IMG/VR virus record: IMGVR_UViG_2675903313_000009
Length of the DNA: 64,000 nt
Direction: 5' to 3' (one strand)
Source: a virus
Taxonomy: Duplodnaviria > Heunggongvirae > Uroviricota > Caudoviricetes
Shown here one piece after another: positions 28,373-63,066 of the stretch (positions within the stretch are counted from its first letter, which is position 1; each line of letters begins with the position of its first letter). The notes below the pieces were generated by a model. The model ran no database searches, was not told the origin of the DNA, and saw only the letters and a program-made list of their open reading frames with translations. The translations under genes and the position numbers were made by a program.

Positions 28373-28373
28373 A

Positions 28374-36222: not shown

Positions 36223-36426
36223 GTGCGTAAAGGATGTTTCGGCTCTCTTATCGCTGCTTCTGAAACTGGTAAGGCTTGTCTGGTGTGTCCAGACAAGCCC
36301 GATTGTCACCAATCAGCAAAAGAAGTTGCGATTTCGATGCATGGGAAGTTCGTAGGCTTCCCCAATGACAAAATCAAAAAAACCAGAAAGGTAAAAACAC
36401 ATGAAGGCACTGATGGTTCGAACTGA
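36223..36426 (+). CDS. Small Cys-rich protein (67 aa)
   Basis: CLVCPDKPDCH motif; overlaps the polymerase start; weak. Confidence 0.3.
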   Translation: MRKGCFGSLIAASETGKACLVCPDKPDCHQSAKEVAISMHGKFVGFPNDKIKKTRKVKTHEGTDGSN

Positions 36427-39400
36427 CTTCTCACTTGGGGAGTCGGCTCTAAAAGCAGAAAACGCGGTGAAGATTGCCAGAGAAGCTGGCTACACCGCTG
36501 TAATTTCAGCAGATAGCATGAATATTGCGAGCGTTATTCCACTACAACGTGCCGCTGGTGACGACATGGCGGTTATTTGTGGTGTGAAACTAAACATTGT
36601 TGATGATCCCACATACGAGCACCGGGCTAAACTTGCTAAAGAATCTATGAGATGTATGGAATCATTAGAGCGGGGACGTAACTACTCGTTTACCGCTCTA
36701 ATTAAAAATGAGCAAGGATATCGCGACATCTGCGAACTAATGACGGTGGCCAACACACGAGAACAGTTCTACTTTGTACCGCGTCTCTCGCTCGAAAAGT
36801 TGGTTTCTACATATGCCAAAGGCAACATCATCCTGCTCACTTCCGACATCGGTAGCGTGTTCCAACGCAACGATTTTGCAAAAATCATAAGCTCACTGAT
36901 TACAGCGGGCGGGAAAGACAACTTCTATAGTGTGGTTTATCCGCACCCTACCCCATTCTACGACCAGATTAACGTCCGAGCGATGAAAGTCGCCAGCGCA
37001 CTGAAAATAGAGCCAGTAGCGTTCTATCCCGCTTATTACGAATCGATCGACGATGCAGACATTAAAGACATTGCGCACATGGTTACGAACAACATAAAAA
37101 TCGACCAGCCGCATCGTCTGCGTATCCCCCACCAGCGAGATAACGCCATCAATGGTCGTCGCCATCTCCTTGAGGCGCTTAAAGCCTTCTCCGTTCGCAT
37201 GGATGTGCCGGTAACAGCTGCAATGGCCTCAACAACGCAGGACTCCATTATCGATGCCTGCACATGGCGCTGGCATGAATTGCCACCAGCACTGCCCAAG
37301 ATGGCAGACGACGAACCTGCAACGCTGATGAAACTGGCTGTTGCAGGGCTGCGTAAACGTCTTACCACAAAAGAGTTTGGATACACACCACCTGCTTCTG
37401 AGAACAGGGTTTATGTTGAGCGGCTAAAGTACGAAATGGACACGCTGACTCGCCTGGGATTCTGTGGTTACTTCCTGATGGTACGCGATCTGATGAATCA
37501 CAGCCGTGAAACTGGCATTCCTGTCGGGCCTGGTCGTGGTTCCTCTGCCGGTTCTCTGGTGGCGTGGTGCATAGGCATAACCAACGTCGACCCAATCCGT
37601 CACGGTCTTCTGTTTGAGCGTTTCATCAACCCTGAGCGTCTCGACTTGCCGGATGCGGACTTGGACTTCAGCCAGGCACGTCGCCATGAGGTGATCGAGT
37701 ATCTGAATGAACGCTACGGCGAAGATTACGTTGCAGGCATTCCGAACTTCACCTACCTGGGCGCAGCCTCTGCACTACGTGACACCGCTCGTATTTATGG
37801 TGTGGAGTCCGCAGATATGGCGGTATCAAAAGAACTGAAGAACGTCGAGGATGATAGCCTTCCATTGGAAGAGCTGCGCGAACAACTGGCAAGTCTCGAC
37901 AAATACGCAACAAAATATCCTGATGCATTCAATGCAGCCTGCAAGTTACAAAGCCTTATGCGTGGCTTTGGTAGACATGCGGCAGGGATGATCGTAGCAG
38001 GTGTTCCTCTAACAGAACGTACACCGGTTGAGCGCCGTGGTGACGCGCGTTGTATCGCATTTGACAAGCGTTACTGCGAGGCTATGGGCCTAATTAAGCT
38101 GGACGTACTTGGTCTGGCAACTCTCGATTTGCTCGATAGTGCAAAACGCTACATAAAAGAGAACACAGGTGAAGATATCAATCTTGATGCCATTTCTCTT
38201 GAAGATCGCAAGGTGCTGGATGGTTTTGCTGCTGGGTACACTCAAGGTGTTTTCCAGCTTGAATCAGGCCCAATGCGCAAGCTGCTTAAAGATTTAGGTG
38301 GTGGAATTGAGCCAATGAGCTTTAAAACGGTTGTTGCTACGACTGCGCTCTTCCGGCCGGGGCCAATTCAGTCAGGCATGTTGGATGACTATGTTTCTGT
38401 AGCCAAAGGCTTTATGACGCCGGAATCATTACACCCCGTTCTTGATGAACTTACCGCAGAAACAAATGGCGTGATTCTCTATCAGGAACAGACGATGAAC
38501 GCGACTCGATTGCTTGCTGGCTTCACAATGGCTGAAGCTGACGGCGTTCGTAAAGCGATCGGTAAAAAAGACATGGAAAAAATGAAGAGCATGGGCGAGA
38601 AGTTCATCGTTCAGGCTCAAGCTGGCTGGATAGACGTTGAGCTGGAAGATGGCACTACACAGCGCATTCACCGTGCGGAACATTTTAAATGCGAAGACGG
38701 AACTCTGAAAACTGTCGAAGAGGCACTTGAGTACGGCGCAAAACTACCTATAAACGCAGTACGCGTTACAGCGTCACATCCAGGGCTATCAGAGATGAAA
38801 GCGAAGGAGATCTGGACCGCATTCGAAAAGAATGGTGCCTACCAGTTCAACAAATCACACTCTGTTGCTTACTCCTTAATCAGTTATCAATCTATGTGGT
38901 TGAAAACTCATTATCCCGCGGAGTTCTTCGCTGCTGCTCTCACTATTCTTGGCGAAGATAAACACCAGGGGCTGGTTAAAGATGCGCTGACCTATGGTAT
39001 TCGCGTATTGCCACCAGACGTTAACGTGTCATCTAACCGAATCGAGATCCGCACGCTTGAAGATGGCAGCCAGGTGCTGTATGCGCCCTTCTCTGCTGTG
39101 AAAGGGTGTTCTGAGAATGGCTGCCAAGCCATCATGAGAGCGCGAGAAAAAGTTGGCGGCAAATTCGAGTCACTGGCGCAATTCGAAGAAGCTGTCGAGA
39201 AACGTGCCTGTAATAGTCGAGTGCGCGAATCGCTGCAAAAAGTAGGGGCGTTTGCATCCATCGAGCCAGGCAGTCTGCCAGCAACTGATCCAGAGCGCCT
39301 ACGCGACCAGGCTGAATTGATGGGAAACCTTGTCATAGACGCAGTTAAAGCCTCACGTCCGTTTGAGATGAACCCCAAACGTTCGGCTGAAATTAACGTA

Positions 39401-39919
39401 CTCATGACGCGGATGGCGGCTGAAATGGGCTTAGGTGATGAACTAATCCGCCCCAGCATTGGTATTAAGCCGAAAATCATGATCATTCTGGACAATGCGA
39501 ACGGCAATGATGCTCGAACCGGTTACTTTATGGAGAACGGATACGACGACTTTAAGGCCAAGCTATTGACGGCTGGAGATTTACGCATGGGCGATCTCTA
39601 TGTCACAGGTGTTTGCAAGAAGGTTAAAGACAAAGAAAAAGACTACACCAAAGACGAGATCGGCCAGTTCACCGACTTTATGCGTGAAGAGATCAATCTG
39701 GTGCGTCCGACCTATGTGCTGACGTGTGGCAGCCGGGCAACTTCATTGTTTAACAACAAAAACAAGCCATCCGATTTGGTCGGCAGGAAGGAGTATCTTC
39801 CAGACCTTGACGTTACTGTCTTTTACGGGTTTAACCCCAACATTCTTTACTTCAGACCTGAAGAGGGAGAACGACTAGAAGCGATATTAGCCGACGTAGC
39901 AGAAACCATTAAGACGTGA
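36401..39919 (+). CDS. DNA polymerase III alpha-like replicative polymerase (DnaE family, N-terminal PHP domain)
   Basis: 1172 aa; N-terminus MKALMVRTDFSLGESALKAENAVKIAREAGYTAV is PHP-like; blocks GPGRGSSAGSLVAWCIGIT and FERFINPER..LPDADLDF are typical of the pol III alpha core. Confidence 0.85.
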   Translation: MKALMVRTDFSLGESALKAENAVKIAREAGYTAVISADSMNIASVIPLQRAAGDDMAVICGVKLNIVDDPTYEHRAKLAKESMRCMESLERGRNYSFTALIKNEQGYRDICELMTVANTREQFYFVPRLSLEKLVSTYAKGNIILLTSDIGSVFQRNDFAKIISSLITAGGKDNFYSVVYPHPTPFYDQINVRAMKVASALKIEPVAFYPAYYESIDDADIKDIAHMVTNNIKIDQPHRLRIPHQRDNAINGRRHLLEALKAFSVRMDVPVTAAMASTTQDSIIDACTWRWHELPPALPKMADDEPATLMKLAVAGLRKRLTTKEFGYTPPASENRVYVERLKYEMDTLTRLGFCGYFLMVRDLMNHSRETGIPVGPGRGSSAGSLVAWCIGITNVDPIRHGLLFERFINPERLDLPDADLDFSQARRHEVIEYLNERYGEDYVAGIPNFTYLGAASALRDTARIYGVESADMAVSKELKNVEDDSLPLEELREQLASLDKYATKYPDAFNAACKLQSLMRGFGRHAAGMIVAGVPLTERTPVERRGDARCIAFDKRYCEAMGLIKLDVLGLATLDLLDSAKRYIKENTGEDINLDAISLEDRKVLDGFAAGYTQGVFQLESGPMRKLLKDLGGGIEPMSFKTVVATTALFRPGPIQSGMLDDYVSVAKGFMTPESLHPVLDELTAETNGVILYQEQTMNATRLLAGFTMAEADGVRKAIGKKDMEKMKSMGEKFIVQAQAGWIDVELEDGTTQRIHRAEHFKCEDGTLKTVEEALEYGAKLPINAVRVTASHPGLSEMKAKEIWTAFEKNGAYQFNKSHSVAYSLISYQSMWLKTHYPAEFFAAALTILGEDKHQGLVKDALTYGIRVLPPDVNVSSNRIEIRTLEDGSQVLYAPFSAVKGCSENGCQAIMRAREKVGGKFESLAQFEEAVEKRACNSRVRESLQKVGAFASIEPGSLPATDPERLRDQAELMGNLVIDAVKASRPFEMNPKRSAEINVLMTRMAAEMGLGDELIRPSIGIKPKIMIILDNANGNDARTGYFMENGYDDFKAKLLTAGDLRMGDLYVTGVCKKVKDKEKDYTKDEIGQFTDFMREEINLVRPTYVLTCGSRATSLFNNKNKPSDLVGRKEYLPDLDVTVFYGFNPNILYFRPEEGERLEAILADVAETIKT

Positions 39920-40044
39920 TCCCATAAACATGGCCTCTATGGCCATGTTTTCTCTTATCCCCTCATATCCCCTATCCTCGAACTCCTTGCCTTATCATCA
40001 CAATGATATAATCAATATAAGATGATAAGTAAAAAGGAAAGCAC

Positions 40045-40476
40045 ATGATCACCGATATTTACGAGAAAATAATGTCTGATCTCGAGTTTGACCGAGACAA
40101 TCTGGAGGAAGTCTGGCGTAGACAACCCCGCCTTTTAATGGAGTATGGCTCAAAACTCGCTCATGCAGAAAGAAGTGTCGCAGAGGCAAAACTTAACCTT
40201 GAAGCTGTTGAAGCAAAGCTATACGACACAGAGCGTAAGAACTTGAGTATGAACGGCATTAAGTTCAACGAATCTGTACTGGACGCTAAGGTTAAAACAA
40301 ACCCACAGTATCTGTCTAAACGGCAGAAGTTGGATGAAGCACGGCACATCGCAGACATATACAAACATGCTGTCGCCGCCTTTTCGCATCGCCGAGACAT
40401 GATCGTTCAGGCGTCAAAGATGGCCATCGTTGAATTAGAGCGATTAGGCTCTGAACGCTTTATTACTCCCCGTTGA
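40045..40476 (+). CDS. Hypothetical helical protein (143 aa)
   Basis: Track ORF with the conserved AAAGGAAAGCACATG leader. Confidence 0.5.
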   Translation: MITDIYEKIMSDLEFDRDNLEEVWRRQPRLLMEYGSKLAHAERSVAEAKLNLEAVEAKLYDTERKNLSMNGIKFNESVLDAKVKTNPQYLSKRQKLDEARHIADIYKHAVAAFSHRRDMIVQASKMAIVELERLGSERFITPR

Positions 40477-40593
40477 TTTTTGATAGATAATAAGTATGTA
40501 CTGATCTATTATTTAACAGCTCGAAAGAGCCACGAATGAACGAAAGCCCAACGCGCATAGCGCCATCGGCCAAATCACAACAAGGAGAAACAC

Positions 40594-41622
40594 ATGTCTA
40601 AGACATTACTTGATTTGCTTAACAAAACTCGTGAAGACATTGCCGCCAAACGTGGTAACAACGTTGATCTGACTCGCTTAAAAGACGGCGTCAACTATAT
40701 CCGCATCTTCCCGAATAAAGACGACCCAAACGGTAAGTTCTTCCAGACTTTCGGTATGCACTACGTTAAGTATCAGAACGAGGAAGGTAAAGAAGCAACC
40801 AACGCTTATATTTGTGAGCAACATACTCACGGTCGCGCTTGTCAGCTATGCGAAATGGTGATGGAAGGTCGCGCTCGTCACAAGGGTAACAAAGCAATGG
40901 AAGAACGCATCGGTCAAATGCGTGCCACTCCTCGCTACCTGGTCAACGGCATTCTTTCTGCTCGTGAGGATTTCGCAGATGCTGAGAAATGCCAGTTAAT
41001 CGAGCTGCCGTCTACTGTATTCGATGATATCTGCAAAGCAATCACCGAAGACATCGCTGATGATATCGGCAATCCACTGAGCAAAGAGGAAGGCTACGCA
41101 TTCCTGATTAAACGTACTGGCTCTGGTCGCGATACCAAATATGACGTCTCGCCTAAGCGTAAAGTCTACAAAGGCGATATCGAAGATAAATTCTGGAACA
41201 CCCAGCATGATCTGATCGCATACGCAAATCAGGCTGATGAAACTCGTCTTCTGTCGACAGTTCGCACTATGGGTCGTCTGATTGGCATCGCTGCACCAAC
41301 TGCCGCAGCATCTGCACCAGCAATTTCCTCAACCGCGAAAACATCGGCTGCGGCACTACCTGGATTTGGCTCTGTCACTGGTCATACAGAAGGAGCGACT
41401 GCTGTAGCAACCGCTCACACCCCAGCTTCTGAACCAACCAGTCTGGTTGATGAAGAAATCCTCCGTGCCGTTGAAACTGAATTTAAACCAGAGGCAAGTT
41501 CCGCTGCCGTTGCCGTATCAGTCAAAGAGTCTGAAGCAGTCGCAGCGACATCTGTAGCAACCGCATCTGCGACGGAAGATGAAGGTCTGGATGACCTACT
41601 GAGAGAGCTGGACTCTCTGTAA
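40594..41622 (+). CDS. Putative ssDNA-binding protein (gp32-like: zinc site plus acidic C-terminal tail)
   Basis: Cys/His cluster CEQHTHGRACQLC and strongly acidic C-terminus (EDEGLDDLLRELDSL); sits with FEN and RecA genes. Confidence 0.5.
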   Translation: MSKTLLDLLNKTREDIAAKRGNNVDLTRLKDGVNYIRIFPNKDDPNGKFFQTFGMHYVKYQNEEGKEATNAYICEQHTHGRACQLCEMVMEGRARHKGNKAMEERIGQMRATPRYLVNGILSAREDFADAEKCQLIELPSTVFDDICKAITEDIADDIGNPLSKEEGYAFLIKRTGSGRDTKYDVSPKRKVYKGDIEDKFWNTQHDLIAYANQADETRLLSTVRTMGRLIGIAAPTAAASAPAISSTAKTSAAALPGFGSVTGHTEGATAVATAHTPASEPTSLVDEEILRAVETEFKPEASSAAVAVSVKESEAVAATSVATASATEDEGLDDLLRELDSL

Positions 41623-41641
41623 TCCCATTACGTGACCAGTA

Positions 41642-41667
41642 AGGCGTCTACGGACGCCTTACTTTTT
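41642..41667 (+). terminator. Rho-independent terminator (GGCGTC...GACGCC family)
   Basis: AGGCGTC-TACG-GACGCCT followed by TACTTTTT. Confidence 0.6.
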
Positions 41668-41682
41668 GGAAGGAATGTACCG

Positions 41683-42627
41683 GTGAATTATCTCTTCGTA
41701 GATGGCAATAGCCTGGGTTATTACCACCAACAATCTGACAAATTGCACAACGGCGAAATGGAAGTACAGGCTGCTTTCGGCTTTGTTAAGAACGTCCGTC
41801 GTTATGCCTCCATCCTCCATGCCCGACCTATGATTCTTTGGGATGGATTTAGTGACAAGCGTCGCGACTTTTACCCGGACTACAAAGCAAATCGCGACGA
41901 CGATCCTGATATGAAAAAGATGAAGGAAGGCTTTGCTATCCAGAAGCCATACATCCTCAAAATGATGACCGCGCTTGGAGTTACCCAACTCATTGCAAAA
42001 GATGCAGAAGCGGATGATCTGGCCGGGCTGCTGGTAGCCAGCATTGCACCGCAGCCAATCGTTGAACACATCTATCTGTTAACAGGCGATAGCGACTGGC
42101 TTCAGTTAGTTCGCGAAAACGTAAGCTGGGTAAGCCTGCGCGAAGACGCCAAAAACAAGCAGGTTAATTTTGAGCAATTTGCGGAGCTGACAGGATTCGC
42201 TACTCCTCGCGCATTTTTGGAAGCAAAAGCATTACAAGGCGATAAATCGGACAACATTAGCGGTGTTGGTGGCATTGGTGCTGGCGGTGCGAAAGAGCTG
42301 CTGCATGAATGGGGAAGTGTCGCAACGATGGTACGCGGCATCAACGACGGCTCAATCGTGGTTGACAAAGGACGCCATAAGACCGCCTTCAACAAACTAG
42401 CGAAGAATGCCTTCAACGAGAAAACAGGCTGTCGAATGCTCGAAGCGTTCAAGAGAAACATCACGCTAATGAACCTGATTGAGACGAAGTTTCCGCCTAC
42501 CGAAATCGAAACAATCAAAGGCAATCGTGACGTGAAAGCATTCGAGCAACTGTGCTACGAGCTGAATTTCCGTTCGTTCCTTGAAGACCTTGAAGTGTTT
42601 GTTCTTCCATTCGAAAGGTATTGCTAA
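41683..42627 (+). CDS. 5'-3' exonuclease / flap endonuclease (FEN, PIN-like)
   Basis: GTG at 41683 preceded by GGAAGGA; N-terminus NYLFVDGNSLGYY and later acidic clusters typical of FEN-family nucleases; the track ORF start at 41632 lies inside the terminator hairpin. Confidence 0.8.
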   Translation: MNYLFVDGNSLGYYHQQSDKLHNGEMEVQAAFGFVKNVRRYASILHARPMILWDGFSDKRRDFYPDYKANRDDDPDMKKMKEGFAIQKPYILKMMTALGVTQLIAKDAEADDLAGLLVASIAPQPIVEHIYLLTGDSDWLQLVRENVSWVSLREDAKNKQVNFEQFAELTGFATPRAFLEAKALQGDKSDNISGVGGIGAGGAKELLHEWGSVATMVRGINDGSIVVDKGRHKTAFNKLAKNAFNEKTGCRMLEAFKRNITLMNLIETKFPPTEIETIKGNRDVKAFEQLCYELNFRSFLEDLEVFVLPFERYC

Positions 42628-42893
42628 TGCTTAAATCGATTATCAATGGCGCTACAACCACCCCTGCCCAACTGGCAAAAGAGATTGTCTTTTATCACGG
42701 TGAGTACGCTGTCATCGCACTGCCGTCAATTCTAGGCGCTGCCGGAATGAAAGCGACAGATCGCGAGTTTGGATTAGTCAGCGAGCAGGTCGTAAAAATC
42801 CTCGCTCGTGTATCCAGACTCCTTAACCACGATGCGATTGTATTCGATGAATCCGCCGCTTTAAAACGAATCAACGAAACAAAAGGAGCCTGA
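42621..42893 (+). CDS. Small hypothetical protein (90 aa)
   Basis: Track ORF overlapping the FEN stop; weak. Confidence 0.35.
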   Translation: MLMLKSIINGATTTPAQLAKEIVFYHGEYAVIALPSILGAAGMKATDREFGLVSEQVVKILARVSRLLNHDAIVFDESAALKRINETKGA

Positions 42894-42895
42894 TC

Positions 42896-43969
42896 ATGGC
42901 AAAAGGAAAATCCGCACTGGCACTTGCTCTGAAAAAGAAAATCGGTAGCAACGACGAAATTCAGAAAGTAACTCATTGGATTGATACAGGCTTTCCACCG
43001 TTAAACAAAGCTATTTCTGGTCGTTACGATGGCGGCTTCCCATGTGGTCGTATCGTCGAAGTATTCGGTCCTCCAAGTGCAGGGAAAACGTTCCTTGCAA
43101 CAGCAGCGATGATCTCCGCTCAAAAACAAGATGGTCTGGCGGTATTCCTCGATCATGAAAACAGTTTTGACGTTGGCCTGGCTGTAGCCAATGGCCTGAA
43201 CGCAGATGAGGATGACGGTCAGTGGGTATACAAGCAGCCTGACACCTTCGAAGACTCTGTAGAGTTGATCGGCACAATACTTAAATTGGTACGTGATGAA
43301 GAGCTTATCCCTGAATCAGCACCTATCTGTATCGTGGCTGACTCACTTGCGTCTATGGTTCCGAACTCCAAAGCCGAGAAGTTCGAAAAGATGGCTGAAG
43401 GCACTGCCAAAGACAAAGATCAGCTAAACATGAACGACAATACGGCACTGGCTCGTGCGACAAGTGCGAACTTCCCTACTCTGGCTTTGTGGGCACGCAA
43501 ATACAACGCCTGCATCATCTTCTTGAATCAGGTTCGCACAAAAATCGGTGTAATGTTTGGCGACCCTACTACGTCGCCAGGTGGAGATTCACCGAAGTTC
43601 TACGCTTCTGTACGTATCCGTCTTGGTGCATCGGTGATGAAGGATGGTAAAGAGAAGATCGGCCAGGACGTAGGCGCAGAATGCATCAAAAACAAAGTTG
43701 CACCACCGTATGGCAAATGCACCTGGAAATTCTACTTCGATCCTACTCGTGGCCTCGACGTTATCGAATCGCTCGTCGAGTACATGCTGGAAGAAGGATA
43801 CCTGCCAAAGAACGCCAGCGGGCGAGTTGAAATTGGTGACAAGAAATACACCAAATCGCAGATCGTCGAGATGTATCGGGAGAAGCCACTGGCTGAAATC
43901 ATTGCGGCTTTGCAGGCAATCGACGACCGAAGAGCAAAAGACAACCCCACCGAGTCAGTAGAAGAGTAA
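42896..43969 (+). CDS. RecA/UvsX-family recombinase
   Basis: Walker A GPPSAGKTFLA in a RecA-like context; 357 aa. Confidence 0.75.
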   Translation: MAKGKSALALALKKKIGSNDEIQKVTHWIDTGFPPLNKAISGRYDGGFPCGRIVEVFGPPSAGKTFLATAAMISAQKQDGLAVFLDHENSFDVGLAVANGLNADEDDGQWVYKQPDTFEDSVELIGTILKLVRDEELIPESAPICIVADSLASMVPNSKAEKFEKMAEGTAKDKDQLNMNDNTALARATSANFPTLALWARKYNACIIFLNQVRTKIGVMFGDPTTSPGGDSPKFYASVRIRLGASVMKDGKEKIGQDVGAECIKNKVAPPYGKCTWKFYFDPTRGLDVIESLVEYMLEEGYLPKNASGRVEIGDKKYTKSQIVEMYREKPLAEIIAALQAIDDRRAKDNPTESVEE

Positions 43970-43975
43970 ACACAA

Positions 43976-43998
43976 GGCGTCCACAGGACGCCTTTTTT
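43976..43998 (+). terminator. Rho-independent terminator (GGCGTCC...GGACGCC family)
   Basis: GGCGTCC-ACA-GGACGCC followed by TTTTTT. Confidence 0.75.
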
Positions 43999-44061
43999 AT
44001 CTCTTGAAAATATATAAGTACTTACTTATTATTTTCGCATAACAACCACATAGGAAAACAC

Positions 44062-44262: not shown

Positions 44263-44265
44263 GTA

Positions 44266-45096: not shown

Positions 45097-45113
45097 CTCC
45101 CCTTAAAAGTTCA

Positions 45114-45138
45114 GGCGTCCAGTTGGACGCCTTTTTTA
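45114..45138 (+). terminator. Rho-independent terminator (GGCGTCC...GGACGCC family)
   Basis: GGCGTCC-AGTT-GGACGCC followed by TTTTTT. Confidence 0.75.
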
Positions 45139-45187
45139 TCGCAATTATCTTATTAAGAAAACAATTTGTTTAAAAGGATAAGAAAAC

Positions 45188-54699: not shown

Positions 54700-57015
54700 A
54701 TGATAAGCATCGTAAAACGTAACGGCCAAACAGAGCCGTTATCCGAAGAAAAATACAACCGCGTCGTAATGTATGGCGTAGAAGGCATTCGTGGTGTAAG
54801 CGCATCCGCTGTAGCAATGGGAGCTGCGGCCAGCATTTTTGATGGGATTACCACCAGCCAGTTGCATGAGGCTTTGGTTAAATCTGCCGCTGATTTGATC
54901 TCACCAGAAGCACCAAATTACTCACAGGTGGCTGCCCGCCTGAACATTTTTAAAATCCGCAAAGATGCCTTCGGTCGTTACGACTATCCGAACTTCTACC
55001 AACACATTGTCAAGAACGTTAACAAGGGCGTTTATGACAAGGATTTGCTGACACATTATTCGTTTGAAGAGATCGAAGAACTCGGCAATTACATTAAGCC
55101 GAAACGTGACGATCTTTTTGGCTATGCAGCTACGGTGCAGTTGCAAAGCAAATACCTCGTTCAAAACCGTGTTACTGGTGAGATTCATGAGGGGCCGCAA
55201 CATATCTATATGCTGGTAGGCATGTGTCTGTTCCAGAATTGGGAAGACGACTGCGCTGGCAAAACACGTATGGAGATGGTCAAAGGTTTCTATGACGTTA
55301 CAAGTACGTTCAAACTGTCTCTGCCCACACCAATCATGGCCGGCGTCCGTACTCCAACCCGTCAGTTCTCCAGTTGTGTGCTGATTGAGTCTGGCGATAG
55401 TCTGAAAGGGATTAGTGCAGCTTCAGCCGCAATTATCGACTACGTTTCACGTCGTGCTGGAATTGGTATTGGTTTTGGCCGTATCCGTGCGCTGGGCAGC
55501 GAGATCCGCAATGGTGAAGCCACCCATACCGGAGTTATTCCATTCCTGAAGCATTTCCAGACGGCTGTTAAATCTTGTTCGCAAGGTGGTGTTCGTGGTG
55601 GCGCAGCAACAGCGTTTTACCCGATCTGGCATCTTGAAGTTGAAAGTCTGCTGGTGGTGAAAAATAACCGTGGTATTGATGAAAACCGCGTTCGCCATCT
55701 TGATTACGGCGTCATGAGTAACCGTCTAATGTACCGTCGACTCGTCAGAAGCGAGAACATCACTCTGTTCAGCCCGCATGATGTGCCTGATATGTACGAA
55801 GCCTTCTTCACAGACCAGGAGCTGTTTGAAAAGCTGTACCATAAATACGAAGCCGATGATTCAATTCGCAAGAAGTCAGTACCTGCCATTGAGCTGTTCT
55901 CATCTCTGATGCAGGAACGAGCGTCCACGGGCCGAATTTATATTGCGAACGTCGATCATATTAATGAGCATGGCGCTTTCATTCCTGCTCTTGCACCTGT
56001 CCGCCAGTCAAACCTGTGTATGGAGATCACCCTACCCACCCGTCCACTGGCATTTACCGACGACCCGAACGGTGAGATCGCGCTATGCACTTTATCCGCT
56101 TTTAACCTCGGAGCCATCCGTTCACTGGAGTCTCTTAAAGAGGTGGCGTTCTATGCCGTTGCTGCACTGGATTCGTTACTGGATTATCAAGACTATCCGA
56201 TGGAGGCAGCCGAAGTGCCTGCCAAAGCTCGTCGTAGCTTGGGAATTGGTGTAACCAACTTTGCTTATTACCTGGCAAAGAATGGCGTTCGTTATTCTGA
56301 TACCGCTGGCAATAAACTGGTGCATGAAACGTTCGAAGCTATCCAGTATTACCTTCTTGATGCCAGCTGCCGACTTGCCGAAGCAAAAGGTGAGTGTGAC
56401 TGGTTTGAGCAGACCAAATACGCAATTGGTCAGTTGCCGATCGACCATTACCGTTCTTCATTAGACGAAAGTGGCGAAACAAACTTTGAGTTAAAGATGC
56501 CGTGGGAAGAACTGCGTGAACGTATTGCAAAATACGGCCTTCGCAACTCCACACTGACGGCACAAATGCCATGCGAGACTTCCAGCCAGATCACTAATTC
56601 CACCAACGGCATCGAACCGCCTCGTGGCCCGGTGTCAGTGAAATCTTCTAAGGACGGCATCGTCAAGATGGTCGTGCCTGAGTTTGAAAAACTGAAGGAA
56701 CAGTATGAATACCTGTGGGATATGCCGGACAACCGCGGCTATCTGACAAAGGTGGCGATCATCCAGAAGTTCTTTGACCAGGCTATTTCGGCCAATACCA
56801 ACTATGACCCTTCTCGCTTTGAAGGCGATAAAGTCCCAATGATGACGCTACTGTCAGATTTGCTTCTCGCCTACAAGATGGGAGTTAAAACGCTTTACTA
56901 CCACAACACCAGAGATGGTGCAGGAAAGCGTGATGACGACGAACCGCAGAATCCACTGGCGCAAGCTGTAGCCGTCGAGCCAGAAGATGAGTGCGACGGA
57001 GCCTGCAAAATCTGA
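54700..57015 (+). CDS. nrdA: Ribonucleoside-diphosphate reductase class Ia, alpha subunit
   Basis: 771 aa; N-terminal ATP-cone, long blocks matching E. coli NrdA from memory (YLVQNRVTGEI, PTPIMAGVRTPTRQFSSCVLIE, SQGGVRGGAAT, SNLCMEI) and C-terminal CDGACKI. Confidence 0.95.
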   Translation: MISIVKRNGQTEPLSEEKYNRVVMYGVEGIRGVSASAVAMGAAASIFDGITTSQLHEALVKSAADLISPEAPNYSQVAARLNIFKIRKDAFGRYDYPNFYQHIVKNVNKGVYDKDLLTHYSFEEIEELGNYIKPKRDDLFGYAATVQLQSKYLVQNRVTGEIHEGPQHIYMLVGMCLFQNWEDDCAGKTRMEMVKGFYDVTSTFKLSLPTPIMAGVRTPTRQFSSCVLIESGDSLKGISAASAAIIDYVSRRAGIGIGFGRIRALGSEIRNGEATHTGVIPFLKHFQTAVKSCSQGGVRGGAATAFYPIWHLEVESLLVVKNNRGIDENRVRHLDYGVMSNRLMYRRLVRSENITLFSPHDVPDMYEAFFTDQELFEKLYHKYEADDSIRKKSVPAIELFSSLMQERASTGRIYIANVDHINEHGAFIPALAPVRQSNLCMEITLPTRPLAFTDDPNGEIALCTLSAFNLGAIRSLESLKEVAFYAVAALDSLLDYQDYPMEAAEVPAKARRSLGIGVTNFAYYLAKNGVRYSDTAGNKLVHETFEAIQYYLLDASCRLAEAKGECDWFEQTKYAIGQLPIDHYRSSLDESGETNFELKMPWEELRERIAKYGLRNSTLTAQMPCETSSQITNSTNGIEPPRGPVSVKSSKDGIVKMVVPEFEKLKEQYEYLWDMPDNRGYLTKVAIIQKFFDQAISANTNYDPSRFEGDKVPMMTLLSDLLLAYKMGVKTLYYHNTRDGAGKRDDDEPQNPLAQAVAVEPEDECDGACKI

Positions 57016-57020
57016 CATAT

Positions 57021-57050
57021 GGTGGGGGATATCCCCACCTTCTCTTTGAT
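57021..57050 (+). terminator. Hairpin/terminator after nrdA
   Basis: GGTGGGGGA-TAT-CCCCACC hairpin followed by a T-rich tract. Confidence 0.5.
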
Positions 57051-57121
57051 TTGTAAGCCTTGTTTAAACACATAAGATAACAACTTGTTTAAACGCACCA
57101 AAAAAGAAAAAGGAAAAACAC

Positions 57122-58264
57122 ATGTCATATTCAACGTTCCGTTTGGGTGCTAATGATGCAACCAAAGAGCCTATGTTCCTCGGACAATCTGTCAACGTGG
57201 CACGTTACGATCAGCAAAAATACCGTGATTTTGAAAAGTTGATTGAACGTCAATTGTCTTTCTTCTGGCGGCCGGAAGAAGTTGATATTTCGAGCGATCG
57301 TATCGACTTCAACACGAAGCTGCGGGACCACGAACGTCACATTTTTCTGAGCAATCTCCGTTATCAAACGTTACTCGATTCAGTTCAGGGACGTAGCCCA
57401 AATGCAACGCTGCTGCCGCTTATCTCTATTCCTGAACTGGAAACGTGGGTTGAAACGTGGTCTTTCTCTGAGACTATCCATAGCCGCAGCTACACCCACA
57501 TTATTCGTGGCATGGTGGACGATCCGAGCATTGTTTTTGACGGTATTGTTACGGATGAAGAAATCATCAACCGAGCGATCAGTATCTCTGCTGAATATGA
57601 CAGGCTTTATGGGATGACCTGCGAGCGCCAGTCGTTAGGTGAGAAGGAATTTGAGCGTCTGTACGTAAATGAATATGGCTGGGAGCCATACCCTTTGCAC
57701 CGTCAGCTTTTCCGCACATTGGTGTCCATTAATGCGCTTGAGGCGATCCGTTTCTATGTAAGTTTTGCATGTACTTTTGCCTTTGGCGAACGGAAGTTGC
57801 TTGAGGGTAACACCAAAATTATGCGCTTTATTGCCCGTGATGAAGCTCTGCATTGCGAAGGAACTGAACGCATGATCCGCTTCATGCGTACCGGTCGCGA
57901 AGGTTTATTGTGGAAAGAGATTGCTGCTGATGAAGAAAACGTCATTTACGACACCATGAAATCAGTCGCCGAACAAGAAATGAACTGGGCAGACTATCTC
58001 TTCAAAGATGGTTCGATGATTGGTTTAAACGCGGATATTCTCAAAACGTATGTAAAATACCGCACCAATCTGGCTATGAATCGTCTTGGCCTGAAGGCTT
58101 TATTTCCAGAAGTTACCACTGATCCGCTGGTCTGGATGAACAAGTGGTTGTTAACCGACACACTGCAAATTGCACCACAAGAGGCAGAGCAAAGCACATA
58201 TCTGGTAGGTCAGATCGATTCTACCGTGGATAAGGCTTCTCTAAGCCAGTTTGCAGACCTGTAA
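57122..58264 (+). CDS. nrdB: Ribonucleoside-diphosphate reductase class Ia, beta subunit
   Basis: 380 aa; long blocks matching E. coli NrdB from memory ([83 protein letters not shown]). Confidence 0.95.
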
Positions 58265-58341
58265 ACCGATACAAAGCATTATGTGGCCTGGCAACGCTGG
58301 GCCACAATGGATCACAAGAATTAAGAAGGAACAAAACTAGC

Positions 58342-59211
58342 ATGAACTTTACCAAACTGACTGACCACCTGAAACTTGCCACCGATCGACTCATTGGATT
58401 TAAGCCAGAACCATATGAGTTGCATGAAGGCCATGGTGTAGCCACTGAAAGTATTTACAAGATGGTCGATCAGTTTCATGAACTCTTCCAGCATCCGAGA
58501 CGCGTTATGCCGACACCAGAGCTGCTTCGTCTCCGTGCAAGCCTGATTCATGAAGAAGCTGTAGTGGAAGGTATTCCAGCCGCAATGAATGGGGATATTG
58601 AGCAACTGCTGGATGCAATGGCCGACTTTTTATACGTTGGTGTTGGTACGATGGTCGCCATCAAAGGTGGTATTTCTACCGGCATGACTTATTACACGCA
58701 GGAACAGAGCATTGATCGCTTTATGCAGACAATTTTTGTGCCTGGTAACACTGTTTTCGATGATATGGCAATGCCATTTCAGGAAGCTCGTGAGGCGTCA
58801 TGTATGCTCGAAGAGCTGGCAGATAAACTTGAGAACAAGACTGTTAAGGATTCTGAGCTGATTCAGGAACTGCGCCGTGTAATGAACAAAATCTATGTGG
58901 CGTGCATGATGACCTATCGACTGGCTGATTTCCTCGGTATCAATGTCGTCGAGCTGGTTGGCGAAATTCATCGGTCCAACATGACAAAATTATGGCCTGC
59001 AGATGCCAAAGAGCGTCGCCATGCTGTGGCCAACTGCAAATACGACTCTTCTGACCTGGGATTTCGCCATGCTGATGGCACCGATAAGATGATCGGTTTT
59101 CGAATTTCCGATGGAAAGATTCTGAAGTCTCCAACCTATAGTGATGTCGATTTATCCTCCTTTGTTGAGCAAGCTAAAGCCTCAGCAATGTACGGAATGA
59201 TCAAAAAATAA
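58342..59211 (+). CDS. Hypothetical protein (289 aa); N-terminal region with MazG/HisE-like acidic pattern
   Basis: E-rich helices (LIHEEAVVEGIPAAMNGDIEQLLDAMADFLYV) resemble all-alpha NTP pyrophosphohydrolases; tentative. Confidence 0.35.
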   Translation: MNFTKLTDHLKLATDRLIGFKPEPYELHEGHGVATESIYKMVDQFHELFQHPRRVMPTPELLRLRASLIHEEAVVEGIPAAMNGDIEQLLDAMADFLYVGVGTMVAIKGGISTGMTYYTQEQSIDRFMQTIFVPGNTVFDDMAMPFQEAREASCMLEELADKLENKTVKDSELIQELRRVMNKIYVACMMTYRLADFLGINVVELVGEIHRSNMTKLWPADAKERRHAVANCKYDSSDLGFRHADGTDKMIGFRISDGKILKSPTYSDVDLSSFVEQAKASAMYGMIKK

Positions 59212-59355
59212 TTGTAGGTAGTTATCTATCTGTGTATATTGCGTTGGCGCGTTAAATTTCTGAAACAACTATTCGTTTTTGGTGGCCTGTGGCCACCATT
59301 TTTTTATCTATCTGGTCTTGTTCTCTCAATAAATGTAAACTCACACAATGAATAA

Positions 59356-60486
59356 GTGATTACTTATCTTTGTGAGGTTTTTGTGTCACTCCTTTTGAAT
59401 CGTGAGCATACGAACGGTCAGGTAACAAACGCATCGTATGCAAAAGTTATTGAGACGGTGCTTAAAAGCGGCGTGCAGGCTGATGATCGCACAGGCACTG
59501 GTACTTTAAGCACCTGCTACGTTCCCTCTTACTACATGCTTACTGGTGGGACTGTGCCGCTTATTTCTGGAAAGGCGGTAAATCTTAAGCCACTACTTGT
59601 CGAACTTGAGTGGTATCTGAAAGGCACGGGCAACATCCAATTTCTCAAGGATAACGGCGTTAAGATTTGGGATGCATGGGCCGATGAGAATGGCGATTTG
59701 GGGCCGGTTTACGGTAAGCAGTGGCGTCGATGGGAAGATACCCGCATCGTGAGCCATAGTGAATATCTGAGCAAGATCGATACTTTCCGTGAACGCGGGT
59801 ACAAAGTCGAGGGATACCTGGGTATCAGTGAAGATCGCGTAGTGCTGTCCCGTGAAATCGATCAGCTACAGCGTATTGTCGATACACTGCGCACGAACCC
59901 TACCGATCGTCGCATCATGCTTAACGCATGGAACGTAGGCGAGCTTGAGGATATGAAACTGCCACCTTGCCACTTTGTCTTCTCTTTGTGGAGTCGTGAG
60001 CTTGATTTTGAAACCCGTTTAACGATGGCAACTGACATTGGTCTTCAACACAGTCGCCTCGGTTATGAGTCTATCTACACCAAGATGCTATACGATCTGG
60101 AGATGGACGGCAGTGTTACTGAAACTGAACTGGATGAACTTGGAATCCCCAAACGCATCCTCAACTCCTGCCTCGTACAGCGTAGCGTAGACACTTTTGT
60201 TGGTATGCCATTCAATATTGCTGGCTATGGCATTCTCACTCATTTTCTCGCGAAGATTACGGGTCACATGGCCGGTGCATTTGTGCATTTTGGCTTTGAC
60301 GTGCATTTGTACAACAACCACATGGAAGGTGTGTGTGAGCTAATGCAACGACAGGCTCCAGAGCATTCAGATCCGGTCGTTATATTCCCTAATGAATGGT
60401 CTGAGCTGGATGATTTCAAATGGGACGAGATTCTTATTCTTGGCTATGCCCCTCTACCGTGGATCAAGGTTCCAGTGGCGGTGTGA
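59356..60486 (+). CDS. thyA: Thymidylate synthase family enzyme with two insertions
   Basis: Blocks DRTGTGTLS, WDAWADENGDLGPVYGKQWRRW, NAWNVGELEDMKLPPCHFVF, GMPFNIAGYGILTHF match ThyA; 376 aa versus about 264 aa; GTG at 59383 after a GAGG RBS is a likelier start. Confidence 0.8.
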   Translation: MITYLCEVFVSLLLNREHTNGQVTNASYAKVIETVLKSGVQADDRTGTGTLSTCYVPSYYMLTGGTVPLISGKAVNLKPLLVELEWYLKGTGNIQFLKDNGVKIWDAWADENGDLGPVYGKQWRRWEDTRIVSHSEYLSKIDTFRERGYKVEGYLGISEDRVVLSREIDQLQRIVDTLRTNPTDRRIMLNAWNVGELEDMKLPPCHFVFSLWSRELDFETRLTMATDIGLQHSRLGYESIYTKMLYDLEMDGSVTETELDELGIPKRILNSCLVQRSVDTFVGMPFNIAGYGILTHFLAKITGHMAGAFVHFGFDVHLYNNHMEGVCELMQRQAPEHSDPVVIFPNEWSELDDFKWDEILILGYAPLPWIKVPVAV

Positions 60487-60487
60487 T

Positions 60488-60901
60488 ATGGCAAGAGGTA
60501 TGTATGTCTTATGCGAAATTGAAGGTGTGCTGGCAAATACCAGCCATCGTAAATCTGTATCTGACTCGGATGCAGGCCAATTCATTGCCGGTGATGAACT
60601 CATTTTCCCCACCAGCCGTATGTTGCGTGGTTTTGCTCGCTCAGGGGCTGAAGTGGTGCTTATCAGTAGCCGCTCTGAAACTCTTGAAGCGCCCACTAAA
60701 CGATGGCTGAAAGATTTTGGTGTTGATTACGACTGGCTTCATCTCGTACCGAATAGCACTAGTTATGAGAAGCATATTAAGCGCACATTAGCGGAGCATA
60801 AAGGCGATCTGCTTATCGCTGCGCTGGTGCACGATCCTCGACTCCGTGCCGCTTTAGCTGACTCTCATCATAGACCGGTCATCTATGAGGTGAGCATATG
60901 A
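60488..60901 (+). CDS. Hypothetical protein (137 aa)
   Basis: Internal ATG of track ORF 60392-60901, immediately after the thyA stop; no motif recognised. Confidence 0.45.
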   Translation: MARGMYVLCEIEGVLANTSHRKSVSDSDAGQFIAGDELIFPTSRMLRGFARSGAEVVLISSRSETLEAPTKRWLKDFGVDYDWLHLVPNSTSYEKHIKRTLAEHKGDLLIAALVHDPRLRAALADSHHRPVIYEVSI

Positions 60902-61374
60902 AGATGATAGCTGCTGTTGGCCGTAACTATGAGATCGGCATAGCGAACGAACTGCCCTGGCGTTGTTCTACCGATCTGAAGCTATTTAAGAGACTCACCA
61001 AAAACGCCACTGTCGTTATGGGGCGTAAAACGATGGAAAGTCTCAAACGCCCTCTTCCAGAGCGTCATAACCTCGTTTTGACGCGCTCGCATGGCTTTGT
61101 ACCAAATGGATTCTACCCTGCTGGTGTGGATGATGTGCTACGATTACCAGAGCCTGTGTGGGTGATTGGCGGGGAACAAATTTACTCGCTATTCATGCCG
61201 CATGTTGAAGAGATTTGGCTCTCTCACATCGGCGTTGATGTACCAAACGCCGATGCATTCTTCCCGACAAGCATGATGCGTAACTTAGGCTTTGTGCCTG
61301 TTGAAACAGTTTTTACCCAACGAGCCAGCGAGGAAGAGCCTGGCTTTTCGCAGATCGTATACAGAAGGTCGTAA
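60898..61374 (+). CDS. Dihydrofolate reductase
   Basis: 158 aa; N-terminus MIAAVGRNYEIGIANELPWR and size typical of DHFR; sits beside thyA. Confidence 0.85.
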   Translation: MKMIAAVGRNYEIGIANELPWRCSTDLKLFKRLTKNATVVMGRKTMESLKRPLPERHNLVLTRSHGFVPNGFYPAGVDDVLRLPEPVWVIGGEQIYSLFMPHVEEIWLSHIGVDVPNADAFFPTSMMRNLGFVPVETVFTQRASEEEPGFSQIVYRRS

Positions 61375-62018
61375 TGGATTACCGGATTGGGATCACTGGT
61401 GCTCAGGGCAGTGGGAAAACAACCCTGGCAAAATATATCGACAAACATTACGGAATCCCTTACGTGGATGCTGGGGTCGGAAGTTTGATGAGCCGACTCG
61501 GTGTTCGAGTAGGTGAGTCTATGCCTCTATATGAGCGGCTTCAGATTCAAATGGAAATAGCAAAGCATATAGAGCTACTTACGCGTGGTGTTGAAGGCTT
61601 TGTTATCGATCGCACACCTGCTGATGTTATGGCCTACACGTTGGATTTGGTCGGCCATACCAATGAAGATCGATGTATTGAGTTAGCCCTCGATATCGAA
61701 AAGTTTTGCCACAAAACTGCTATTTCAAATTTTAACGCCATTGCTGGCCTACGCCCGGGGGTCGCTCTCTCAGAGCGAGATTACTTGCGGTCACAACGAG
61801 CATCATTAGACCGTCTGTATGTCGCTCGTATTGATGCGTTGATGTGCGGGGAACTGACAAAAATTCACCTGCATCCGCAAAGGGGAGATCTGCAAACCTT
61901 CGTCGTTTCCAACCGGTATCGCACAGTTGAAGCAAGAGCCAGATCAGTAATGAGAATGCTCGATAACGCGGTAGAAAAGATAGAAAACCGCTTCTGTGGC
62001 CGAGTAACCGTTCATTAG
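61374..62018 (+). CDS. P-loop nucleotide/nucleoside kinase-like protein
   Basis: Walker A GITGAQGSGKTTLAKYI at the N-terminus; 214 aa; context of nucleotide metabolism genes. Confidence 0.5.
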   Translation: MDYRIGITGAQGSGKTTLAKYIDKHYGIPYVDAGVGSLMSRLGVRVGESMPLYERLQIQMEIAKHIELLTRGVEGFVIDRTPADVMAYTLDLVGHTNEDRCIELALDIEKFCHKTAISNFNAIAGLRPGVALSERDYLRSQRASLDRLYVARIDALMCGELTKIHLHPQRGDLQTFVVSNRYRTVEARARSVMRMLDNAVEKIENRFCGRVTVH

Positions 62019-62499: not shown

Positions 62500-62508
62500 G
62501 GAGTTCTG

Positions 62509-63066
62509 ATGACAACGATTGTTGCAGGCATCGATATCGAGTCTACGGGACTGGATTTCCTTGCTGGTCATAAAATTATTGAAATCGCAATTACCCGCTA
62601 TGAACTGGAGACACAGAGACATATTGATAGTCTGGAGATGCGTTTTAACCCTCGCAGAAACATAGATCCGAAAGCTCAAGCCGTTCATGGCATTTCATTG
62701 GAACAGCTCGCAGCTGAACCTTTGTTGTCAAATCATGCCAGCGAAATTGGCGCTTATATGGGGGCATGTAGTGTGTGGGTTGCTCATAACGGCGAAGCAT
62801 TTGATATACCATTTATTCGACACGAGTTTTCAGGGTATGGAGTAAGACTGCCAGAAGTTCCTGTTATAGATACTATGTTATCGGGATTGTGGGCCACAGA
62901 AGACGGTAAACGTCCCCGCCTTGAAGAGTTGGCCTTCTCTCTTGGCTTTATATACGATCATGCCAAAGCACATAGTGCCTTATATGACACAAACTTAATG
63001 ATGCAATGCTTCTTTAAGGCACGTAATAAGTACGGATTTTTTAAATTACCCTCTGAAATTGTGTAA
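62509..63066 (+). CDS. DnaQ-like 3'-5' exonuclease (DEDDh family)
   Basis: Exo I IVAGIDIESTGLD, Exo II WVAHNGEAFDIPFI, Exo III HSALYDT. Confidence 0.75.
   Translation: MTTIVAGIDIESTGLDFLAGHKIIEIAITRYELETQRHIDSLEMRFNPRRNIDPKAQAVHGISLEQLAAEPLLSNHASEIGAYMGACSVWVAHNGEAFDIPFIRHEFSGYGVRLPEVPVIDTMLSGLWATEDGKRPRLEELAFSLGFIYDHAKAHSALYDTNLMMQCFFKARNKYGFFKLPSEIV

Follow-up and report, generated by a model that had tools for sequence, protein, structure and literature searches.

Replication genes of an SSU5-type phage-plasmid: a T4-like toolkit around a C-family DNA polymerase with a uracil-DNA glycosylase-like domain, beside an iteron plasmid replicon

The SSU5/pHCM2-type siphovirus phage-plasmids are a well-known kind of element, and the DNA analyzed here, a stretch of 64,000 nucleotides from IMG/VR record IMGVR_UViG_2675903313_000009 (the window, to whose positions all coordinates refer), is part of one. 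Cyrano, one of its relatives, forms virions and is maintained at ~5.5 copies per cell (PMC9928086). Resistance genes are found on SSU5-type elements, which are common in clinical Enterobacteriaceae (PMC9600943; 10.1101/2025.09.12.675607), so that for their copy-number control and host range it is of interest which replication functions depend on the host and which belong to the phage. The relatives SSU5, CMS-2020a, PhiR41_1 and Cyrano share one gene order with the window, at 81-98.6% nucleotide identity across the replication region: over positions 36401-46400 the identity is 98.6% with Escherichia phage CMS-2020a, 97.8% with PhiR41_1, 95% with Cyrano (= pLF82) and 81% with Salmonella phage SSU5. 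Public annotations of these elements already name a DNA polymerase III alpha, helicase, primase, ligase, RecA, gp32-like single-strand DNA-binding protein (SSB) and exonuclease, as well as RepA, SbcCD, a ribonucleotide reductase and a 'PolIII subunit epsilon', and the replicon of the relatives is typed IncFIB. The replication gene list is thus already known, and the differences that set the window apart from its relatives are allelic only (uninterrupted dnaE and recA genes, and the absence of HicAB). The window dnaE itself is found in 244 of 5,426 complete E. coli genomes (4.5%), always plasmid-borne and labelled "dnaE"; in PLSDB, proteins with 60% or more identity to its product are encoded on ~820 plasmids of Klebsiella, Escherichia, Enterobacter, Yersinia and Salmonella, and the Y. 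pestis and S. enterica plasmid copies have 94% protein identity to the window's.

Two better-described phages frame what follows. The plasmid origin of P1, oriR, is laid out in the order DnaA boxes, GATC repeats, incC, repA and incA; both P1 and the window element pair a replicon with ParA-type partition and with separate lytic functions, but P1 has a dedicated lytic replicon, repL/oriL, that uses host enzymes, whereas the window element has its own helicase, primase and polymerase. T4 has the B-family polymerase gp43, the gp45 clamp, the gp44/62 clamp loader and gp59. The window has a C-family polymerase instead, and we detected none of gp45, gp44/62 and gp59 in it, yet T4 counterparts are otherwise plentiful: a gp41-type helicase, Toprim primase, gp32, a recombinase, a UvsY-like protein, gp46/47, an ATP ligase, a FEN-type nuclease (flap endonuclease, FEN), NrdAB, thymidylate synthase and DHFR. 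Unlike T4, the element is temperate and carries a plasmid replicon, and bacterial RecA, not UvsX, is the nearer relative of its recombinase. The gene set is most aptly viewed as a T4-like toolkit for replication, recombination and nucleotide supply, with a C-family polymerase in the place of gp43. We propose, with a probability of about 0.6, that the element is a phage-plasmid with two separable replication systems, a P1-like replicon and a T4-like lytic module whose DnaE polymerase, fused to a uracil-DNA glycosylase (UDG)-like domain (DnaE-UDG), works on the host clamp.

The original prediction for this DNA described a near-complete bacterial-type replisome encoded at 36401-63066 alongside the plasmid replicon. 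That observation is real but mis-bounded, and its interpretation was partly right. All eight functions that it named are located in the window, each with significant profile support; DnaE, the gp32 SSB, FEN, RecA and the DEDDh exonuclease lie inside the interval together with the Rep_3 initiator, while the helicase, primase and ATP ligase lie upstream of it. "Near-complete" does not hold, as beta clamp, clamp loader/tau and theta were not found, and "bacterial-type" fares no better: the SSB is gp32-type, the ligase is ATP-dependent, there is neither an OB-type SSB nor an NAD ligase, and the helicase is nearest to T4 gp41. Several genes within the interval had been missed, namely those for the UvsY-like, SbcD/SbcC-like and RuvC-like proteins, NrdA/NrdB, MazG, ThyA, DHFR and a P-loop kinase. 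In its first form the finding repeats what public annotation already says of a common family of phage-plasmids and by itself changes little. In the corrected picture, an atypical C-family polymerase stands at the center of a T4-like toolkit that has no clamp system of its own, and the plasmid replicon is a separate, lineage-specific insert.

The polymerase gene (36401-39919, plus strand) encodes 1172 aa. Judged by its sequence, the protein is a genuine C-family DnaE, with a Pol3 core that retains three catalytic aspartates, a PHP domain and (HhH)2. Pfam matches include DNA_pol3_alpha (1.2e-73), the finger domain (2.6e-44), HHH_6 (1.7e-16) and PHP (7.8e-13); TIGR00594 scores 633 bits, above its cutoff of 434, while all DnaE equivalog models stay under theirs (e.g. 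NF004226, 679 vs 1002), and phrog_405 covers the full length at 1211 bits. Solved relatives include Taq Pol III alpha (9e-122), M. tuberculosis DnaE1 (1e-114) and the E. coli enzyme (5e-109), to which the protein is 33% identical and with whose D401, D403 and D555 its residues D418, D420 and D555 align. E-values down to 1e-122 rule out that the polymerase call is an artefact, and profile search thus upholds the assignment made originally. No other DNA polymerase was found in the window, and a T4 gp43 query finds nothing in the complete relative CMS-2020a.

Palm, fingers and (HhH)2 are homologous to those of E. coli Pol III alpha, and the PHP metal site is defective in both enzymes. The PHP domain of the window protein (aa 6-175; 36416-36925, plus strand) is degenerate, with a weak Pfam match (49.5 bits, cutoff 26.4, against 2.2e-42 for the same domain of E. 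coli DnaE) and no HxH motif. His is absent from its first 20 residues (MKALMVRTDFSLGESALKAE), E. coli H12 falling on a gap and H14 on R7 in the alignment, and we rejected active PHP proofreading of the Mtb/Taq type because the HxH metal ligands are gone. The larger difference lies at the C-terminus, where the E. coli enzyme has an OB fold and a tau-binding domain and the window DnaE has neither: Pfam finds no match to PF01336 or PF20914, whereas in a control scan of E. coli DnaE both were recovered (PF01336 at 1.6e-11, aa 1000-1072; PF20914 at 9e-29). Because these domains are absent, DnaE-UDG should not be able to join a tau-organized holoenzyme.

In their place is a degenerate family-4 UDG-like domain at approximately aa 1010-1172 (39428-39916, plus strand). 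TIGR00758 matches DnaE at 2.8e-7 and Pfam UDG matches the isolated C-terminus at 1.5e-3; a profile built from a 29-sequence family alignment finds the family-4 UDGs 4zbx (3e-21), 1vk2 (2e-20) and 1ui0 (4e-16) in the PDB, and distant fusion members exceed the Pfam UDG cutoff. An exhaustive search of representative proteins with the C-terminus returned 147 clusters, many of them 1080-1140-aa proteins matched at their extreme C-terminus; a word-indexed homologue search with the same query gave 6 close fragments only. Foldseek places UdgX and family-4 UDGs at the top of its matches to an AF2 model of the C-terminus, although this model, made from a 5-sequence alignment, has a confidence score (pLDDT) of 53.5 and lends weak support only, so that the assignment rests on the profiles. 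From these, the DnaE C-terminus belongs to the UDG superfamily and is family-4-like. Motif A reads LDNANG (vs GE[AG]PG) and motif B FNPN (vs HPS), the His of motif B being replaced by Asn, Ser or Thr throughout the 29 sequences, and the Fe-S cysteines (CxxC and later Cys residues) that many distant fusions possess are missing. Glycosylase activity is doubtful, given the degenerate motifs and the lost cysteines.

The DnaE-UDG architecture is not new: a DnaEX polymerase variant with a UDG domain was published in 2014 (Timinskas et al., NAR 42:1393; PMC3919608), where it is classed as an 'additional' polymerase in bacterial genomes. The main text of that paper never uses the word 'phage', and the passages retrieved from it link the UDG variant to no phage; nor do they cover the clamp motif, catalytic residues and gene neighborhood of the variant, which the present analysis adds. 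The phage-plasmid surveys do not discuss this polymerase, and we found no biochemical study of DnaE-UDG in the literature searched. The original remark that DnaE-type polymerases are uncommon fits a survey that calls C-family polymerases rare in viruses (PMC4889955), but within the SSU5 lineage the gene is the rule.

After the fingers domain the window DnaE has an insertion of ~50 aa (aa 741-791; 38621-38773, plus strand) that is not in Taq or E. coli DnaE. At this site the dnaE of relatives is broken into two open reading frames (ORFs; for example L004 301-4553 and L005 5989-10232), one of ~787 aa running from PHP to fingers and one of ~389-421 aa comprising the HhH and UDG-like parts, the latter often labelled 'uracil-DNA glycosylase'. 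A NUMOD4/HNH homing-endonuclease ORF parts the two halves: in Klebsiella p2 a 787-aa N-terminal part is followed by a 233-aa HNH ORF and a 389-aa C-terminal part, and the layout in Acinetobacter pB84_2 is identical. One metagenomic relative has a LAGLIDADG intein near the insertion site; in the window the gene is uninterrupted. Among the representative clusters, C-terminal halves of ~390 aa are common, and PHROGs has separate families for the dnaE pieces.

Neither Pfam nor PHROGs matched beta clamp, clamp loader (tau/gamma, delta, delta') or theta among the window ORFs scanned, and tblastn queries of E. coli DnaN and DnaX and of T4 gp45, gp44 and gp62 produced no match below E = 2.6 in either the window or the complete 109-kb CMS-2020a; the control query, T4 gp46, recovered the SbcC-like gene at 1.7e-12. 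Since no phage clamp or clamp loader was detected, DnaE most likely borrows the host beta clamp, and we suggest that it does so through the motif Q970-x-E-L-M. This candidate beta-clamp-binding motif lies in a linker directly after (HhH)2 (R966-LRD-Q970-AELMGNL; 39296-39331, plus strand), which is the position where C-family polymerases carry their clamp motif (PMC3919608). R966 and Q970 are each kept in 27 of 29 homologues with 24-60% identity and are among the ten most conserved columns of the C-terminal region. The pattern Q-x-x-hydrophobic-hydrophobic recurs in 24 of the 29, with a family consensus of Q-x-E-L-[LM]-P-G that resembles the QL[SD]LF clamp motif, and the segment is modeled with low confidence and is probably flexible. 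The near-invariant Q970 peptide is a candidate clamp-binding motif only, and its description is possibly new. For the two polymerase regions that the original prediction had singled out, the outcome is thus that the tau-binding domain is absent along with the OB fold, and that the clamp-binding region comes down to this candidate motif.

The last gene of the module (62509-63066, plus strand) encodes a 185-aa DEDDh 3'-5' exonuclease with the catalytic core of an epsilon-like protein only (Pfam RNase_T, 6e-22). Its best solved relative is the E. coli epsilon186 core (8e-11), the DxE, FD and HxxxxD motifs are present, and phrog_192, 'DNA polymerase exonuclease subunit', matches at 4e-51. Epsilon models of 234 aa cover aa 8-169 at 1e-19, all under cutoff (e.g. 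71 bits vs 196). E. coli epsilon is 243 aa long and has a clamp-binding and alpha-binding tail, whereas the window protein stops where this tail starts; we rejected its assignment as a full epsilon subunit because it ends at residue 185 without a tail. If it proofreads for DnaE it must dock differently, given the absence of the alpha-binding tail.

The separability of the two replication systems was examined by comparison with distant loci. Two distant DnaE-UDG proteins were used to retrieve 160 IMG/VR loci with related phage dnaE genes (median identity 36%, many on contigs of 100-120 kb), and 10 kb on each side was examined, with loci sorted by local tblastn and a hidden Markov model. A UDG-type C-terminus is present in 133 loci, of which 130 are non-canonical, like the window, and 3 have a canonical family-4 UDG (L062, L063, L081); the remaining 27 DnaEs have no UDG domain. 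No canonical UDG motif A or B occurs in any of the 130. The order CobT-CobS-dnaE-UvsY-like-gp32-FEN-RecA-SbcD-SbcC is colinear and on one strand in these 130 loci wherever the genes are seen: CobT lies upstream on the same strand as dnaE in 91 and CobS likewise in 102, the UvsY-like gene follows immediately downstream in 104, and matches were obtained to gp32 in 88, FEN in 108, RecA in 99, SbcD in 77 and SbcC in 67.

The survey also separates the polymerase types by their neighbors. Within 10 kb of the 130 window-type genes there are no DnaX-like or DnaN-like genes and 102 CobS-like ones. All three canonical-UDG loci have a DnaX-like gene, and none has a DnaN-like or CobS-like gene; the corresponding numbers among the 27 loci without a UDG domain are 9 DnaX-like, 4 DnaN-like and no CobS-like genes, so that CobS is found in 0 of 30 loci with other phage DnaE types. 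Fisher tests on a first-pass split into 130 and 30 loci, which are phylogenetically non-independent, gave p = 2e-10 for DnaX and p = 1e-16 for CobS. By these counts the clamp loader and the CobS/CobT pair look mutually exclusive beside phage dnaE, and the presence of the pair, not a clamp loader, next to DnaE-UDG is possibly a new observation. In the window the CobT-like protein, which has a von Willebrand factor A domain (32781-34889, plus strand; Pfam CobT_C 3e-82, CobT 1.5e-26), and the CobS-like MoxR-type AAA+ ATPase (34985-36220, plus strand; AAA_5 2e-15), whose nearest solved relative is the cobaltochelatase CobS 9ujv (1e-25), are encoded directly upstream of dnaE, with the CobS-like gene adjacent to it. 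The pair (32781-36220) is not accompanied by CobN. Many of the DnaEs without a UDG domain (L064-L074, L083) have a length of ~900 aa and terminate just past HhH with a ...LFIF tail, as read directly from the ORF ends; the tail of this class, ...K(S/Q/H)(L/F/Y)F(I/D)F, looks like a terminal clamp-binding peptide, and DnaX-like and DnaN-like genes are often nearby.

This distribution invites an alternative to the use of the host clamp, in which DnaE-UDG is a clamp-independent replicase and the UDG-like domain, perhaps with CobS/CobT, tethers or loads the polymerase in place of OB fold, tau, clamp and loader. The domain is still conserved after losing the family-4 catalytic motifs and Fe-S ligands in the window protein, DnaX-like genes stand beside all of the canonical and a third (9/27) of the UDG-less polymerases but beside none of the 130, and there is a precedent in the poxvirus UDG D4, which with A20 forms the processivity factor of the E9 polymerase (PMC4889955). 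However, the loci largely represent one clade, so that their counts are not independent, and only 10 kb per side is covered; clamp binding is the better explanation of the near-invariant Q-x-x-L-[LM] motif; and many phages with other polymerases have CobS/CobT-like pairs, which are usually taken as metabolic genes. We therefore regard a clamp-independent replicase as unlikely. The same tentative standing applies to the broader proposal that DnaE-UDG, present on at least 130 viral contigs, is a distinct class of phage replicase in which a catalytically dead UDG-like domain and an obligately linked CobS/CobT pair replace OB fold, tau and clamp loader; if it were true, the CobS/CobT-like proteins would be replicase accessory factors, not cobalamin-related metabolic genes.

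The genes that flank the polymerase give the module of our proposal its T4-like character, and all of those described in this and the next paragraph are on the plus strand. The hexameric helicase of the DnaB family (19390-20730; Pfam DnaB_C 3.9e-13, phrog_19 2e-87) matches TIGR03600 phage_DnaB at 1e-13, under cutoff; its best PDB match is a 475-aa 'DnaB-like replicative helicase' (8due/8dtp, 2e-11), which we take to be T4 gp41, and bacterial DnaB follows at ~1e-3. The Toprim/DnaG-type primase (20740-21993) is divergent, with weak Pfam matches (DNAG_N 9.5e-5, Toprim_2 1.7e-4), phrog_47 at 1e-60, TIGR01391 at 1e-7 and the structures 5guj (3e-5) and 8dvf (4e-3), the primase chain of the last being presumably T4 gp61. 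Directly upstream of the helicase is a conserved all-alpha protein of 249 aa (18597-19346; confident all-helical model, pLDDT 86) with no significant structural neighbor; a helicase-loader role is possible but unsupported, and the protein is not a clamp. The ATP-dependent ligase is encoded at 25214-26536 (Pfam DNA_ligase_A_M 1.2e-12, phrog_114 2e-125).

Downstream of dnaE come a UvsY-like recombination mediator (40045-40476; phrog_2058 3e-69, phrog_231 'UvsY-like' 1e-4, and named UvsY in the Cyrano annotation), the T4 gp32-type SSB (40594-41622; Pfam gp32 1.7e-66), a 5'-3' exonuclease/flap endonuclease (41632-42627; 5_3_exonuc_N 1e-23, 5_3_exonuc 5e-12) that matches the N-terminal region of Pol I at 9e-35 and has no polymerase domain, and a RecA-family recombinase (42896-43969; Pfam RecA 2.2e-42, phrog_97 'UvsX-like' 1e-91) that is nearer to bacterial RecA (PDB ~1e-34) than to T4 UvsX (2e-9). 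Further along are an SbcD/Mre11 (T4 gp47)-like nuclease subunit (50053-51168; Metallophos 1.2e-9, phrog_100 3.5e-93), an SbcC/Rad50 (T4 gp46)-like ATPase subunit (51398-53314; AAA_23 8e-17, SMC_N 6e-14, phrog_77 4.5e-165) and a RuvC-like Holliday junction resolvase (54057-54626; phrog_159 3e-57). The UvsY-like, SbcCD (gp46/47)-like and RuvC-like genes together suggest recombination-dependent replication in the style of T4. A deoxynucleoside triphosphate (dNTP) supply block follows (54700-62018), identified by Pfam and consisting of NrdA, NrdB, a MazG-like protein, ThyA, a HAD phosphatase, DHFR and a P-loop kinase (Ribonuc_red_lgC 3e-131, Ribonuc_red_sm 4.5e-46, PRA-PH 1.3e-8, Thymidylat_synt 2.8e-78, DHFR_1 3e-34, AAA_28 2e-9).

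The plasmid replicon interrupts this module between recA and the SbcD-like gene. The initiator gene repA (47287-48381, its ORF extending to 48501) is on the minus strand, opposite to the surrounding genes, and encodes a Rep_3-family iteron-binding protein (Pfam Rep3_N 5.3e-9, phrog_775 6e-133). The 404-aa ORF is over-extended, its first 40 codons (48381-48501, MLPAVIDSLSTVRRMLPTVFGMLPAANQ...) being iteron read-through, and the phrog_775 match begins at residue 51; translation probably begins at the ATG at 48381. The window contains ACCGCTGACAGCATA 17 times at no more than 3 mismatches, where 1.35 copies are expected and none of 100 shuffles reached 17, and all are on one strand. Twelve of them, sharing this core, form an array downstream of repA (46755-47286, plus strand) that is a candidate copy-control array comparable to P1 incA, and an iteron scan places five upstream (48402-48502, plus strand) as a candidate origin and autoregulation site comparable to incC. 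Beyond these, a direct scan finds six GATC sites in 56 bp (48544-48602), in repeats that form repeat family D4, together with a DnaA box, TTATTCACA on the minus strand at 48624-48616, and an adjacent near-consensus box (48544-48624 overall). A ParA-type partition ATPase is encoded at 15378-16046 on the plus strand (Pfam MipZ 7e-14, AAA_31 9e-14, CbiA, ParA; ParA in the Cyrano annotation). The Rep_3 initiator and its 17 iterons bear out the iteron/RepA plasmid system that had been predicted. The order of parts is that of P1 oriR, a comparison that draws on what is established for P1; the iteron sequence differs from that of P1, and RepA is related only as a Rep_3-family member (5e-9). By analogy with P1, this layout suggests host-dependent theta replication with iteron-mediated copy control.

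Homologues of RepA and of the SPFH gene occur in none of the 160 distant loci, and the gap between recA and the SbcD-like gene is 6.1 kb in the window compared with roughly 2 kb in the distant loci, as estimated from median offsets. Because repA is on the opposite strand and absent from the 160 loci while the order of the flanking genes is kept, the RepA/iteron block is a lineage-specific insert in an old phage operon. That 130 loci keep the polymerase type and gene order without RepA supports two separable replication systems; the comparison of sequences speaks for their separability, not yet for their timing. The suggestion of two replication modes in the original prediction thus gains from the host-type origin features, the opposite-strand replicon and the absence of RepA elsewhere, while the timing of the modes is something that we only infer.

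From the gene identities and the anatomy of the origin, which are read directly from the DNA, we infer the following functional steps for an element with two separable systems. If the element behaves like P1 and F, iteron-bound RepA would act with host DnaA during lysogeny to bring in the host replisome, and low-copy theta replication would follow; the downstream 12-iteron array would limit copy number and ParA would partition the copies. The conserved same-strand phage module, from the helicase to the epsilon-like exonuclease, would serve lytic DNA synthesis. Once the prophage is induced, copying of the genome would fall to the phage helicase-primase, gp32, DnaE-UDG, FEN and ligase, with the host clamp loader loading host beta for DnaE-UDG and the epsilon-like core proofreading in trans. 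As in T4, recombination intermediates generated with the recombinase, mediator and SbcCD-like set would serve to prime replication, branches would be resolved by the RuvC-like enzyme, and the Nrd/ThyA/DHFR block would feed dNTPs. The module would in this case be a chimera, a T4-style recombination-dependent toolkit in which gp43 has been replaced by a C-family polymerase.

A single replication system can be envisaged instead: in the plasmid state, too, RepA would recruit the phage helicase, primase and DnaE, and maintenance would be largely independent of the host replisome. The replicon is embedded in the replication gene cluster, the ~5.5 copies per cell reported for Cyrano exceed those of P1 (PMC9928086), and there is no sign in the present analysis of phage-gene repression in lysogeny. 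We nevertheless consider this improbable. A DnaA box and a cluster of Dam sites beside iterons are a hallmark of host-dependent origins of the P1 and F type, the P1 arrangement being taken from general knowledge; repA is on the opposite strand and found in 0 of 160 loci, 130 of which have the same polymerase type and gene order; and an HTH (helix-turn-helix) repressor gene is present at 31833-32219, with a weak Pfam match and the label 'putative repressor' in the Cyrano annotation. We give very little credence to DnaE-UDG being an accessory polymerase for repair or uracil handling while host Pol III copies the phage genome, for although the missing OB and tau-binding domains, the degenerate PHP, the UDG-like domain and the 'additional' class of DnaEX (PMC3919608) would suit that role, no other DNA polymerase was found in the window and the gp43 query was negative in the complete relative, synteny with SSB, FEN, recombinase and nuclease genes is strict across 130 viral loci, and the phage's own helicase, primase, ligase and dNTP genes make sense only for large-scale phage-directed synthesis.

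Several points weigh against our proposal of two separable systems with a lytic DnaE-UDG on the host clamp. The two-mode reading assumes that the phage module is silent in lysogeny, and we found no experiment on the replication of SSU5-type elements in the accessible literature. A divergent phage clamp may have been missed, because sequence searches detect sliding clamps poorly. At its end the candidate clamp motif has M or L in place of F, and MAFFT pairs it with the E. coli helix HRAALMNSL, not with QADMF, so that its role could be structural. Support for the UvsY assignment is weak (1e-4), and UvsW and ParB lie outside the window and are taken from the annotation of another record; in Cyrano, RNase H and the UvsW helicase are annotated outside the region equivalent to the window.

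Allelic variation touches other genes of the module. The window recA is an intein-free allele of 1074 nt, compared with 2340 nt in Cyrano (L001 31066-33405) and ~2200 nt in an Acinetobacter homologue; phrog_9666 (779 aa) matches recA in two stretches, and the longer recA of relatives probably carries an intein. In Cyrano a HicA/HicB toxin-antitoxin pair lies between dnaE and the UvsY-like gene (L001 26265-28241), and this pair is absent from the window (39920-40045). The thymidylate synthase (59356-60486) belongs to the ThyA family, with Thymidylat_synt matching in two stretches, and its Cyrano homologue is labelled 'ThyX'; the ORF overlaps the next gene (60392-60901) by ~95 nt.

Four tRNA genes are located at 28126-28649 (Asn-GTT, Tyr-GTA, Thr-TGT and Ser-TGA), and the Cyrano annotation has three, without Tyr. 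They are followed at 30735-32219 by a tyrosine-recombinase ('integrase') gene and then, on the opposite strand, by the small HTH repressor-like gene, the 3' end of which overlaps the integrase. By analogy with P1 Cre, the tyrosine recombinase of a plasmid prophage may resolve dimers rather than carry out integration.

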